A stretch of 64,000 nt of DNA from Alphaproteobacteria bacterium (GTDB lineage Bacteria; Pseudomonadota; Alphaproteobacteria; Rs-D84), in NCBI GenBank assembly GCA_033345235.1, contig JAWPOC010000016.1:69026-133025 (forward strand). Direction: 5' to 3'. Positions 2,743-52,920 of the stretch are shown here, piece after piece (the stretch's first letter is position 1; each line of letters starts with the position of its first letter). The position numbers and the translations under genes are program-made. The notes below the pieces were generated by a model. The model saw only the letters and a list, made by a program, of their open reading frames with translations. It did not search any database and was not told the origin of the DNA.

Positions 2743-2879
2743 ATTTAGTATGATATCATATTGTATACATAGCTTCAATATAATTTATTAAGAATTAAAA
2801 TGGTTATATTTATGAATAAAATCATAAACAATGCTTTTACTTGATTTTTGATTTTTTGCTGTTATAATTCGTGTCGCTT

Positions 2880-2954
2880 GGCAGCGTAGCTCAGTGGTAG
2901 AGCAGAGGAATCATAATCCTTTGGTCGGGGGTCCGAATCCCTCCGCTGCTACCA
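2880..2954 (+). tRNA. tRNA-Met (anticodon CAT; initiator, elongator or Ile-lysidine not distinguished)
   Basis: Cloverleaf: acceptor GGCAGCG/CGCTGCT, D-arm GCTCAGTGGTAGAGC, anticodon stem GAGGA/TCCTT with loop ATCATAA, T-arm GGGGGTCCGAATCCCTC, discriminator A, encoded CCA. Confidence 0.85.
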
Positions 2955-2964
2955 GAATAAACAA

Positions 2965-2988
2965 ACGACCCGATGGGTCGTTTTTTTA
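2965..2988 (+). terminator. rho-independent terminator after tRNA-Met
   Basis: CGACCC-GAT-GGGTCG hairpin followed by a T7 run. Confidence 0.6.
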
Positions 2989-2996
2989 TTCTGTGC

Positions 2997-3141
2997 GTCG
3001 GGGTGGTGATGGACACCCAGATGGGGGTCCGACCCGCAGGCAAAAGGCAGACGGGAGTATGCCGGTCCCCCGAAATTTTAACGAAGGGGGATTTGCCCAG
3101 GGGAATGAAGCGCAGCGGAATCAATCCCTCCGCTGTTACCA
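2997..3141 (+). ncRNA. GC-rich structured element of unknown identity that ends in a tRNA-Met-like acceptor/T-loop 3' end (…TCCGCTGTTACCA)
   Basis: About 65% GC in a ~35% GC genome. Several helices are predictable, e.g. CCCCC-N14-GGGGG and CAGCGGA-ATCAATCCC-TCCGCTG. It lies between two terminators. Confidence 0.3.
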
Positions 3142-3145
3142 GAAT
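3123..3145 (+). repeat. direct repeat of the tRNA-Met 3' end (22/23 nt identical to 2936-2958)
   Basis: AATCCCTCCGCTGTTACCAGAAT versus AATCCCTCCGCTGCTACCAGAAT in the tRNA. The identity extends 4 nt past the CCA. Confidence 0.7.
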
Positions 3146-3172
3146 TTCCCGGTTTTCCGGCCTTTTTTATTT
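3146..3172 (+). terminator. rho-independent terminator
   Basis: CCCGG-TTTT-CCGG followed by CCTTTTTTATTT. Confidence 0.55.
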
Positions 3173-3325
3173 CGTGTTATTTGCCCGAATTTATGCGATT
3201 TTGCGACTTTACGCAGATTGTTTTACATATACTGGACATAATTCCGGACATAGAAAATTGGTGTGCTGTGGAAAGGTGTGGTTTTTCCTGCGCTGGCAAC
3301 CCCGTCTACTGCTACAAACATAGCA

Positions 3326-3805
3326 TCACTTTTCTACACTCAATAACTTTGTTTTGGATTCGTACCAATCTGTCAGACCTTTTATCAAGAAATCTGGACG
3401 TATATCTAGTGATGACAAATCGGCAATATTATGAAATTTAAATTCTAATTTTTCTTCCTTGGATGCGATTGTATCAGGTGTTTCGGCATTAACCGCGAAT
3501 AAAATTGTGTACTCTTGATGACGTGATGATTCAATATCGCCATAAATGTTTTCAAAAAAACCTATTGGTTCACCGATTGAATAAGTAGAACCAATAGTTT
3601 CTTCTTCTAATTCGCGCACCAATGCATTAGTTGCGGTTTCGCCAAATTCAACATGACCGCCAGGTAAAAAATACCAATTTTTACCCTTTACATTAGCCAA
3701 TAATACTTTGTCGCCATTGATAATTACCGCACGAGATAAAATTTCAAATTCTTTATTCATTATATTCTTCCGGCTTTTCATTGTACAAGGAATTGTATCT
3801 TGCAA
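3326..3805 (-). CDS. NUDIX hydrolase
   Basis: Nudix box GGHVEFGETATNALVRELEEETG (GX5EX7REUXEEXGU). Confidence 0.8.
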   Translation of the reverse strand: MQDTIPCTMKSRKNIMNKEFEILSRAVIINGDKVLLANVKGKNWYFLPGGHVEFGETATNALVRELEEETIGSTYSIGEPIGFFENIYGDIESSRHQEYTILFAVNAETPDTIASKEEKLEFKFHNIADLSSLDIRPDFLIKGLTDWYESKTKLLSVEK

Positions 3806-4253
3806 AAGTTAAATTGTCAATTGAACATCAAATTGACTTTTGCTTTTCTTGACTTAAGGACACAAACACAATATAAAACTTTACATATAGAAAAATGATG
3901 TGCTGGTGAAAGTGGCGGATTTCTGCGTCGTTCGTGTGGGAATATACAATCGGCTGCGCTGCTACCAAGACAAACAGCCCCCCGACTTATTAAGTCAGGG
4001 ATAAATAACGATACAAAACCACAGGAATGACATCGGATGACGATGCCATTAGCAATTTTGCACCGACTATAGTAGGCTTGTGACAGCCCCGAACCCATAT
4101 CCCTATGGATTCATTTCATAGTCTATCATTAAAATGAAAGGTTTAAAAGTTTTTTTGGGTGTTCAGATTTAATATAATCGGATTTTTGTATTGTTGACTT
4201 TTTTTTGCGTATTCATAATAATATACCTGTTATATTTTATATAAGGAAAGGTT

Positions 4254-4751
4254 ATGAAAAAGTTATTTGCTTTATTTTTATGTGGTTTGCCAGTCAATTT
4301 GATGGCAAATCCTGCGTGTCCAGTATGTACAATCGCAATCGGGGCAGGGCTGGATATCGCCAGACGTTTGGGCGTTCCAGATAGTGTTGTTGGACTGTGG
4401 GCCGGTGCAATGCTGGCTTTGTTAGGGTACTGGACATTGAAATTTATGGATAAAAAAAGATGGAATTTCTTTGGACGTGATGTGGTTGTTATGCTGGCCT
4501 CAATCGCGATGATTGGATTCGTTTATCTGGGGGTTACACAATATAATCCTGTACAAATTTGCGGCGTTTTCGTGATGGATCCTGTGTTGTTCGGTACAAT
4601 TTGCGGCGCGATTATCTTTATTTTAACATCAAAACTGTATCAATGGATGAAAGAAAAAAATGGTGGACATGCACACTTTCCGTTTGAAAAAGTTGTCTTG
4701 CCAGTTGTCGCGTTGGCTGTTGCCAGTTGGATTATGATGTTGTGTTTTTAA
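4254..4751 (+). CDS. hypothetical integral membrane protein (4 predicted TM helices)
   Basis: Hydrophobic segments. A TTGACT-N17-TAATAA promoter-like sequence lies upstream. Confidence 0.45.
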   Translation: MKKLFALFLCGLPVNLMANPACPVCTIAIGAGLDIARRLGVPDSVVGLWAGAMLALLGYWTLKFMDKKRWNFFGRDVVVMLASIAMIGFVYLGVTQYNPVQICGVFVMDPVLFGTICGAIIFILTSKLYQWMKEKNGGHAHFPFEKVVLPVVALAVASWIMMLCF

Positions 4752-52056: not shown

Positions 52057-52920
52057 TTATCTTGTACCTTTGTTCATCCCAAAAGGATGGTGCTTTTCAA
52101 CTGTTTCTTTTAACTGTTCTGGCATAACGTGCGTGTATATCTGGGTTGTAGATATATCTTCGTGCCCCAACATTGTTTGTATCGCACGCAAGTTCGCACC
52201 GCCAGCCAGTAAGTGTGACGCAAATGAATGACGCAGTACGTGTGGACTGACGCGATTCGGATCAATGCCGGACAGTATAGCACATTTTTTTAAAATTTTG
52301 AAAAAACCATCACGTGTTATGTGACCGGAATTTCCACGTGATGGAAATACGTATTTAGAATCAATGTCACCACGTGCATCCAGCCACTTGTTCAGTGCAT
52401 GTATGGCGGTGGCGTGCATTGGGATTAATCTTTCTTTGGCGCCTTTGCCATGTATTAATAATTTATCCCCCAGTACCCCAGATAATGGTAATTCACATAA
52501 TTCTGATACGCGCAGCCCAGATGCATACAACAATTCAATCATCGCGCGCAGACGAAGTGCTGTTTTTATGTCGCCTGCGGATGATATTAACAGTTCGATT
52601 TCTGTGGGTGATAAAAATTTAGGTAACTTGCGTTCGCGTTTCGGTAATTCCAGATTTTGCGCAGGATTTGTTTCGATTATTTTTTCCAACATCAGAAATT
52701 TATAAAAACCACGTAATGCAGACGCTTTGCGGGCAATAGATGATGGCTTTTCAGATAGTTCTGATAAATATTGTTGTACAGACGCGTTCGTCGCGCTAAT
52801 TAAGCCACCATCAAGCGCAGCGTCTGCTAGAATTAAATCAGACTTGTAGCTGGATAGTGTTCTTTCGCTGCAGCCTTTTTCAGCAGACAGGGCTTCTAAG
52901 AAAATATCTATATAGTTCAC
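52057..52920 (-). CDS. xerD: tyrosine recombinase XerD-type
   Basis: Catalytic motifs …RLRAMIELLYASGLRVSELCEL… and HVLRHSFASHLL…LGHEDISTTQIYTHV. The N-terminus FLEALSAEKGCSERTLSSYKSDL is closer to XerD than to XerC. Confidence 0.75.
   Translation of the reverse strand: MNYIDIFLEALSAEKGCSERTLSSYKSDLILADAALDGGLISATNASVQQYLSELSEKPSSIARKASALRGFYKFLMLEKIIETNPAQNLELPKRERKLPKFLSPTEIELLISSAGDIKTALRLRAMIELLYASGLRVSELCELPLSGVLGDKLLIHGKGAKERLIPMHATAIHALNKWLDARGDIDSKYVFPSRGNSGHITRDGFFKILKKCAILSGIDPNRVSPHVLRHSFASHLLAGGANLRAIQTMLGHEDISTTQIYTHVMPEQLKETVEKHHPFGMNKGTR

Follow-up and report, generated by a model that had tools for sequence, protein, structure and literature searches.

The tRNA-Met(CAU) gene and the segment that follows it

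The stretch analyzed here (the window) comprises 64,000 nt of contig JAWPOC010000016.1 (69,026 to 133,025) from an alphaproteobacterial genome, and all coordinates are positions within it. An intact tRNA-Met(CAU) gene (2880 to 2954, forward strand) was called by ARAGORN and matched the Rfam tRNA model at 66.3 bits. As an earlier note on this stretch had described, it is followed by a terminator (terminator 1), which was called by terminator scan, and then by a GC-rich segment that runs into a duplicate of the tRNA 3' end. With moderate confidence, this segment is interpreted as an intact type A module, that is, a gene for a structured noncoding RNA of ~140 nt carried by a 187-bp nonautonomous integrative cassette at the 3' end of the tRNA gene. 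The features on which this interpretation rests, including the presumed small RNA (sRNA), are listed in Table 1. The tRNA gene was 100% identical to those of four relatives (L010, L013, L015, and L098; L numbers designate loci of the comparison set). It is not initiator-like, with G1.U72 and an anticodon stem lacking GGG/CCC. Its T-loop (2933 to 2939, UCCGAAU) has C at position 55 instead of the near-universal U (pseudouridine), and canonical T-loops (UUCGAAU and UUCAAAU) were found in relatives L047 and L044.

The GC content of positions 2997 to 3141 was 60.0%, compared to a window mean of 38.8%. The segment is the GC maximum of the 64 kb (145-nt windows of ≥58% GC started only at 2921 to 3016) and is thus as atypical as had been claimed, but at a lower value than the ~65% given. 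The 23-mer AATCCCTCCGCTGCTACCAGAAT at the tRNA 3' end (2936 to 2958) recurs as AATCCCTCCGCTGTTACCAGAAT at 3123 to 3145 with 22 of 23 identities (C to T at 3136), and it had no further match in the window at ≤3 mismatches (0.00 expected by chance); the near-perfect repeat, which includes 4 nt beyond the CCA, was therefore as the earlier note had reported. That note had missed a second repeat: the T-arm 5' strand GGGGGTCCGA (2927 to 2936) is found again inside the element at 3023 to 3032, so that both halves of the tRNA T-arm lie within the element, ~90 nt apart. A third copy of the 11-mer CGCTGCTACCA was real and, outside the two repeats, was the only one in the window (3957 to 3967; 0.00 expected); it is the tail of a decayed module of another type (B2). 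The second terminator placed after the element (terminator 2) has a stem and a T-run but is weaker than described, with a 4-bp CCGG/CCGG stem (3149 to 3152 and 3157 to 3160) and six T residues (3163 to 3168), and was not called by the scan. In relatives, this stem has 5 bp. Terminator 2 and the TTTACATATACTGGACATAATTCCGGACATAG repeats beyond it are laid out like the left ends of integrase islands in L050 and L053.

Table 1. Features at and downstream of the tRNA-Met(CAU) gene
Feature	Position	Strand	Basis or remark
Promoter-like site of the tRNA gene: TTGATT, 16-nt spacer, TATAAT, upstream TG	2841–2868	+	10 of 12 matches; consensus match only
tRNA-Met(CAU), putative integration target; 3' part from the T-loop on lies within the left direct repeat	2880–2954	+	ARAGORN, Rfam
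Left direct repeat (attL-like): T-loop 3' part, T-stem 3' strand, acceptor 3' strand, CCA, GAAT	2936–2958	+	Repeat search
Cassette-specific DNA (terminator 1, leader, GC-rich core), absent from L010; 187 bp with one repeat copy	2955–3122	+	Alignment of relatives
Terminator 1: 9-bp stem (2963–2983), then T-run; moves with the cassette on its 5' side	2963–2993	+	Terminator scan, relatives
Candidate −10 box TATTCT for the element; weak, without −35 or TG	2987–2992	+	Read from the sequence; not called by scan
Type A module, ~140-nt structured element, presumed sRNA, ending ...GUUACCA	3002–3141	+	Covariance model, family alignment
P1, 5' hairpin: leader (A)UGGAC (family UUGGAC) with GUCCGA, in the T-arm-derived segment GGGGGTCCGA (3023–3032)	3009–3032	+	Helix 1, 95.5% paired
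Core three-way junction, P2 to P4	3033–3103	+	RNAalifold, pairing test
P2, closing the three-way junction	3033–3035/3101–3103 and 3039–3043/3093–3098	+	Further double changes
P3, with GNRA loop GGGA: GGCAGAC[GGGA]GUAUGCC in the window	3046–3052/3057–3063	+	Further double changes
P4 hairpin	3065–3071/3086–3092	+	Three pairs with both sides changed in 8 to 11 sequences
P5, 3' hairpin CAGCGGA (3113–3119)/UCCGCUG (3129–3135); 3' strand is the tRNA-derived tail	3113–3135	+	Helix 6, 78% paired
Right direct repeat (attR-like): displaced original tRNA 3' end, 22 of 23, now module tail	3123–3145	+	Repeat search, alignment of relatives
Terminator 2 (3148–3172) and TTTACATATACTGGACATAATTCCGGACATAG repeats; ~95% identical to L010 and L098	3146–3260	+	Alignments of relatives
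Strongly decayed B2-type module remnant ending in CTGCTACAAAC	3218–3330	+	Sequence comparison
NUDIX hydrolase gene, 159 aa, between the two module remnants	3326–3805	−	Pfam NUDIX, E = 2e-13
Decayed 3' half of a B2-type module; tail AATCGGCTGCGCTGCTACCA matches the L016 variant	3876–3971	+	Sequence comparison

Insertion, exchange, and the module family

Comparison with relatives revealed both an empty site and occupied ones, as the earlier note had anticipated. In the close relative L010, whose flanks are collinear, terminator 2 of the window and the sequence beyond it come immediately after an identical tRNA gene. The window differs from this empty site by a clean insertion of 187 bp, made up of a duplicate of the tRNA 3' end, which reaches from the T-loop to CCA plus GAAT, followed by terminator 1, a leader, and the GC-rich core. 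L098 carries a cassette of type B2 at exactly the position of the window's cassette, and L082 carries the window's type, again with collinear flanks, so that presence or absence and changes of type (L010, the window and L082, and L098) fall exactly at the repeat borders. The insert is thus flanked by direct repeats of the kind left by a tRNA-targeting integrative element, the tRNA gene is intact and regenerated, and the corresponding empty site exists.

The cassette-specific DNA was 97% identical to that of L082 (168 of 168 nt aligned) and 99% identical to that of L013 over 101 nt, up to the truncation in L013; terminator 1 and the leader alone were 97 to 98.5% identical between genomes. Identities of surrounding genes between genomes were 76 to 83% for the uracil-DNA glycosylase, 69 to 82% for a PagL-like gene, 74 to 76% for the open reading frame (ORF) at 4254 to 4751, and 73 to 77% for the aspartyl-tRNA synthetase. 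Judged by these identities, which showed the cassette to be far more alike between genomes than the chromosome around it, the cassette has been exchanged horizontally. The nonstructural terminator and leader were as conserved as the core, which argues for recent transfer rather than for purifying selection alone. Positions 3123 to 3260, which hold the displaced 3' end, terminator 2, and flanking DNA, were ~95% identical to L010 and L098. The NUDIX hydrolase gene farther downstream was 99.2% identical to the L082 copy, compared to 74 to 76% for neighboring genes, and, bracketed as it is by two module remnants, reads as a tiny piece of horizontally exchanged cargo. By the same comparisons, the whole stretch after the tRNA gene is a patchwork of recently exchanged pieces. 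Because terminator 1 moves on the 5' side of the module, the order of parts in the mobile unit is a circular permutation of that in the presumed RNA. An element would show such a permutation if it brought in a fresh tRNA 3' end with a terminator, while the previous ones came to lie at its right border.

Related loci were collected by scanning species-representative genomes for the neighboring uracil-DNA glycosylase gene, which yielded ~60 loci from "Candidatus Enterousia" and unnamed Alphaproteobacteria metagenome-assembled genomes (MAGs) from animal and human guts. A gapped DNA pattern (GGTCCGA-N68-96-AATCCCTYCGCYGCTACCA) added 27 module-bearing contigs from rumen and gut metagenomes. The Enterousia-like hosts are described in the literature only as uncultured gut bacteria with reduced genomes, and a full-text literature search for comparable arrays or for Enterousia returned nothing relevant beyond MAG catalogues. 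Iterated nhmmer searches found the type A core in 27 loci and type B in 40 (53 loci in total, with 1 to 5 modules each). Wherever tRNA genes were mapped, all modules lay downstream of the same tRNA-Met gene and were co-oriented with it; several species carry no module at this tRNA. A copies of full length, with the same two ends, were found in more than 20 species, and truncated or internally deleted A copies were found in L013, L015, and L033. At least five unrelated cores (A1, A2, B1, B2, and B3) occupy the space between fixed junctions (...GGTCCGA and AATCCC...), and they combine with three kinds of 5' flank, namely, the A leader, the B leader, and a genuine displaced tRNA 3' half.

The arrays also bear traces of local rearrangement. 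In L035 (1749 to 2427, reverse strand), an A+B unit of 416 bp is duplicated exactly and in tandem, so that five module hits follow one tRNA; arrays thus expand also by local duplication. Hybrid modules were found in L047, L052, L053, and L097. In the last three of these, a core lies within a displaced tRNA 3' half; judged from the sequences, the best explanation is that a layout like that of L050 lost the DNA between GGGTCCGA repeats.

These rearrangements bear on an alternative in which the modules are resident host sRNA genes that are duplicated, lost, and swapped by homologous recombination, unequal crossing-over, and slippage at repeated tRNA 3' ends, with no site-specific integration. We regard this alternative as unlikely, although worth serious weight. 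It would account for the exact tandem duplication in L035 and for the hybrid modules, which are expected from deletion between the 8- to 11-nt GGGTCCGA repeats and for which L050 has a precursor-like layout. It would also agree with the finding that no recombinase is linked to the cassette and with a structure and likely promoters that fit functional sRNAs. However, the co-transferred unit is circularly permuted, with terminator 1 on its 5' side, which is a sign that a new tRNA 3' end is supplied; the right-hand homology available for exchange is only 19 to 23 bp; and presence or absence and type change exactly at the repeat borders. Cassette identities of 97 to 99% across backgrounds of only ~75 to 80% identity would, moreover, require frequent transfer between species.

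Several other origins were considered for the modules and rejected. No viral contig matched the gapped module pattern, the A core motif, or the B core motif exactly, and blastn searches of phage and plasmid collections returned no match; a phage or plasmid origin was rejected on this basis. A dispersed miniature inverted-repeat transposable element, an IS200/IS605-type element, or an RPE-like palindrome was rejected because cores occur only beside this tRNA, once in the 64 kb, and because five unrelated cores share the same junctions. An intron-like insert in a functional tRNA was also rejected: in 36 loci, no full-length tRNA-Met gene had an insert in the T-loop, and only 3'-half copies had one.

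Other structures were observed at this tRNA in the comparison set. In L014 (from 2009), L022 (reverse strand, near the contig end), and L039 (from 11395), a tRNA-Met 5' half gives way to unrelated sequence right past the anticodon loop, and these contigs end 130 to 260 nt past the point of divergence. A second, truncated tRNA starts ~170 nt downstream of the 5' half in L039. A group I intron was rejected for these interrupted genes, including that of L039, since no Rfam intron model matched. A GC-rich linker, TCCGTCTTCGCTTCGCTCCGTCGCGATTGGTACAATCGGGCGGGGCGATGTGATTTTAATCACGCGA, directly follows ...CTACCA in L051, L055, L090, L091, L102, L104, and L111; it takes the place of the terminator after a tRNA or a module, can lead into a B leader, and may be a further module type. 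L012 and L016 contain a long hairpin-like element, TATTATGACCTGGGTCCCG...CCACGGGATGA, after the terminator, ~110 to 190 and 290 to 390 nt from the tRNA start.

Fold of the modules and relation to known RNA families

The type A alignment comprised 19 distinct copies, for which a consensus fold of five helices (P1 to P5) was obtained with RNAalifold and tested against shuffled alignments and slid pairing partners. With the covariance model built from it, the window copy scored 126 bits, the whole length of the model being aligned, and no other copy was found in the 64 kb. On the consensus, 93.0% of cells were paired, compared to 85.5% in shuffles and 27 to 45% with slid partners. Cells changed on both sides numbered 47 (14.2 in shuffles; 0 of 500 as high), and pairs with double changes numbered 12 (6.0 in shuffles; 1 of 500 as high). 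The covariation is solid support for a core fold maintained by compensatory changes. The GNRA loop of P3 reads GAAA in L043 and GGGA in L044, and a G.A mismatch in this helix is common to the window, L043, and L044. G.U pairs are conserved at two places (columns 9:30 and 64:92), each in 17 of the 19 sequences; on the other strand, they would read as A.C, which identifies the forward strand as the structured one. Taken with the GNRA loops, these pairs make an RNA transcribed on the tRNA strand the most likely form of the element.

Type B modules fold as well. They begin with the same invariant 5' hairpin as type A (GGACC/GGUCC) and show coordinated switches from AU to CG, CG to UA, and GC to UA, so that compensatory substitutions were found in both types. 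A TATAGT or TATAAT box lies at a fixed upstream distance in 24 of 31 distinct B contexts, 22 of which also have TG at −15/−14; the conserved box is TGGTATAGT.

The 3' hairpin P5 draws its 3' strand from the tRNA-derived tail, and its inner strand tracks the host tRNA, with CAGCGGA/UCCGCUG in the GCTGC clade and GCGAA/UUCGC in the GCCGC clade; in step with the host tRNA sequence, pair 122:136 changes from G:C to A:U. P5 of the A2 copies forms a perfect inverted repeat with arms of 7 bp and a spacer of 6 nt (GGCGAAG-CAATCC-CTTCGCC). The pairing of CAGCGGA with the duplicated 3' strand, which the earlier note had proposed, was confirmed as complementarity between 3113 to 3119 and 3129 to 3135. 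The acceptor-like microhelix that the note had built on it comprises 7 bp in the window copy, whereas its pairing over the family as a whole drops to 78%, with two rival pairings equally possible.

An alternative in which the hairpins act as DNA, forming a folded single-stranded recombination site like integron attC or CTX-phage attP that serves as a tyrosine recombinase substrate, is considered improbable. The small units do behave like cassettes at a single site, both module ends are hairpins (P1 and P5) with tRNA-derived segments flanking the junction, and the inverted repeat in P5 of A2 copies resembles a recombinase core site; G.T strand asymmetry would also be tolerated in folded single-stranded DNA. 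However, GNRA tetraloops, a conserved G.A mismatch, and a multihelix junction with long-range pairing are typical of RNA, and the conserved extended −10 of B modules together with intrinsic terminators after the modules has the look of a transcription unit. The cores (A1, A2, and B1 to B3) are fully different and only their flanks are common, which would be odd for a site recognized by protein, and no integron-type integrase lies nearby.

The same data bear on one of the two readings offered by the earlier note, in which the segment was a decayed attL/attR footprint, i.e., 187 bp left by a larger tRNA-targeting island and without function of its own. The integration logic of that reading stood, with the empty site in L010, the regenerated tRNA, and islands at the same tRNA, but the element is not decayed and is an intact family member. 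Islands of 3.4 to 4.5 kb with integrase, RhuM, AAA ATPase, and DUF3800 genes do occupy this site in relatives, and decay is seen in the family, both in the truncated or internally deleted A copies (L013, L015, and L033) and in the B2 remnants of the window. Complete copies that end at the same points in more than 20 species, five helices kept by compensatory evolution with a match of 126 bits over the full model, and 97 to 99% identity of a noncoding cassette across diverged genomes speak against it, however, since random decay yields neither fixed ends nor covariation. A mere footprint is therefore very improbable and largely refuted.

The other reading, a tRNA-like small RNA ending in CCA, was correct in part: covariation, G.U pairs, and GNRA loops point to a structured RNA on the tRNA strand, but the fold is not tRNA-like. 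Judged from the consensus, the T-arm 5' half is sequestered in P1. No tRNA cloverleaf was called in 2997 to 3145 by ARAGORN or Rfam, the consensus fold contains none, and the A alignment showed no 5' strand that consistently complements the 3' strand of the acceptor stem. Rfam searches of the whole window at the gathering threshold, and of 2800 to 4100 and the B-containing array of L035 at E ≤ 10, returned only the tRNA and noise. Consequently, the families raised in the earlier note (tmRNA, signal recognition particle RNA, and tRNA-like RNAs) had no match in 2997 to 3145 at either threshold. ARAGORN called no tmRNA in the window, standard or permuted, and Rfam gave no tmRNA match. The only match to YrlA (RF02553) scored 16.1 bits (cutoff, 69) at 2839 to 2933 and fell on the real tRNA, not on the element. 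A hammerhead ribozyme in B leaders (GAUGAGG...GGUCCGAC) was rejected because many copies read GAUAAGG and have GAC instead of GAA after the stem; Rfam gave no hammerhead match on the B-containing array. Protein coding was rejected as well, since the ORFs of 115 to 116 aa extend through the terminator or the tRNA itself, and no reading frame would survive the hairpin indels (4, 10, and 11 nt) that distinguish the copies.

Known small RNAs related to tRNAs include tmRNA, the bacterial Y-RNA-like YrlA, and tRNA 3' trailer sRNAs such as 3'ETS-leuZ. The element resembles them as a noncoding RNA tied to a tRNA, with T-arm and acceptor 3' sequence and an ACCA end. It differs in that its supported fold has no tRNA-like domain, it has no tag frame and no Rfam match, and it is set off from the tRNA by a strong terminator, is mobile, and varies in copy number.

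Integrase islands and the proposed mechanism

Islands of 3.4 to 4.5 kb were found at the same tRNA in L050, L052, L053, L054, and L096, in keeping with the expectation in the earlier note of an intact island at tRNA-Met. Three of them (L050, L053, and L096) carry the gene for a tyrosine integrase of P4 type (HTH_17, Arm-DNA-bind_3, and Phage_integrase domains). In L050 and L053, an N-terminal excisionase-like HTH_17 domain is fused to the P4-type integrase. Other island cargo includes RhuM, AAA_15/AAA_21 ATPase, and DUF3800 genes, families that are frequent in phage defense islands. On the right, the islands at this tRNA end in displaced 3' halves of the tRNA, which start in the anticodon loop. 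Island-like segments with arm-type repeats begin in the tRNA-derived tails of A modules in L028, L032, L054, and L096, and in L054 a full RhuM island starts in such a tail. Module tails thus appear to serve as secondary attachment sites, and these segments would fit a locus that grows by tandem accretion.

Under the proposed mechanism, a tyrosine integrase supplied in trans would act on the segment from the T-loop to the CCA and insert the cassette. As the comparison with the empty site shows, insertion regenerates the tRNA and shifts its original 3' end and the DNA beyond it to the right, where they now serve as the module tail and terminator. The fold would correspond to a forward-strand RNA of ~140 nt, transcribed from the tRNA strand, whose gene spans the right junction and would remain whole whether the cassette is integrated or excised. 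Since the gene spans that junction, the inner strand of P5 must match the 3' strand of the host tRNA, which would explain its covariation with the tRNA. An excised circle or a tandem would show the core end ...GCGGAATC, followed by AATCCC...CCAGAAT and then by AAACAAACGACCC. As to the role of the RNA, the best guess from sequence is one that serves the element, i.e., a stable CCA-tailed transcript for maintenance or regulation of elements at the site, or else selfish cargo; an aminoacylatable tRNA mimic is less favored than either.

Several observations weigh against this interpretation. The 187-bp insert contains no integrase and no conserved ORF, and no recombinase is linked to the cassette. 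The sole tyrosine recombinase in the 64 kb, encoded at 52057 to 52920 on the reverse strand, is of XerD type (NCBIfam tyrosine recombinase, 303.6 bits; XerD equivalog, 295 bits) and is probably a housekeeping protein. The repeat of the integrase islands is 45 nt long and starts in the anticodon loop, whereas that of the cassettes is 19 to 23 nt long and starts in the T-loop, and the islands may therefore not be the mobilizers of the cassette. A 187-bp circle would be a very small double-stranded substrate for recombination, and homologous exchange with the tRNA and the repeat as homology arms could give the same pattern. For the RNA, the scan called no canonical promoter for the window copy, and type A modules mostly have a degenerate −10 that lacks the final T, so that the element may rely on read-through of a strong terminator. 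The single-sequence minimum free energy fold of the window element was not exceptional (z = −0.98). The fold of the tRNA-derived 3' domain is ambiguous: two mutually exclusive pairings, one a 4-bp stem abutting ACCA like an acceptor end and the other a T-stem reconstituted across the insert, are each ~90% pairable and show little independent covariation.

The integrative cassette proposed here shares features with three known systems. Sublocation classes of integration into tRNA genes by islands and prophages were reportedly set out by K. P. Williams in Nucleic Acids Research in 2002. As in tRNA gene islands with P4-type integrases, the insert regenerates the tRNA with its own 3' segment and terminator, displaces the original, and leaves a repeat from the T-loop to beyond the CCA; relatives have an empty site, and real integrase islands use the same tRNA. 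In contrast to such islands, the window cassette has only 187 bp, no integrase, and no protein gene, its repeat is the short T-loop one (19 to 23 nt, not 45 nt), and its sole cargo, a structured element, runs into the right repeat.

Cis-mobilizable elements (CIMEs) and tandem accretion at att sites are known from ICESt1-related elements of Streptococcus thermophilus. Like CIMEs, the cassettes are att-flanked, lack recombination genes, and stand in tandem with autonomous elements, in arrays that appear to grow by accretion. A CIME shares its att sites with its mobilizer; here, integrase islands use the same tRNA (L050, L053, and L096) but have the 45-nt anticodon-loop repeat, and island-like segments with arm-type repeats begin in module tails. 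CIMEs are kilobase-scale deletion derivatives of integrative and conjugative elements with protein genes, whereas the units described here measure ~180 to 190 bp, fall into few structural types, and are under selection for a nucleic acid fold. Integron cassettes with attC sites are likewise small, promoter-poor units that are stacked at one site, are swapped, and have structured ends of variable sequence. The modules differ from them in having no IntI or attI, in using a tRNA gene as the site, and in that the structure, a multihelix junction with GNRA loops, is the whole cargo, without ORFs. No integron integrase was found in the window, where the best match to the model was the XerD-type protein, far below the cutoff.

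In a bolder form of the proposal, which is quite unlikely, the locus would be an integron-like cassette system built on a tRNA gene. Each cassette would be an RNA gene that straddles its own recombination junction and is completed by the displaced tRNA 3' end. Its strands, complementary to both T-arm/acceptor halves, would perhaps choose or protect the att site, acting as an RNA cofactor of recombination or as decoy att sites that spare the essential tRNA.

The modules form a noncoding family without an Rfam match, and what is new is an att-flanked nonautonomous cassette whose sole cargo is a structured RNA family. tRNA genes are classic landing sites of islands, and duplicated tRNA ends have mostly been treated as passive scars. 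Here, the DNA between the scars is a conserved, folded, and exchanged noncoding segment of ~140 nt that occurs in arrays of up to five and in at least five core types. If the modules are transcribed, they would represent a new RNA family tied to site-specific integration, with a displaced tRNA end as the RNA tail. If they are also secondary attachment sites, as four junctions suggest, they would let the hot spot expand at no risk to the tRNA. In both cases, the locus is a compact and testable example of nonautonomous mobile elements with RNA structure as their sole cargo.

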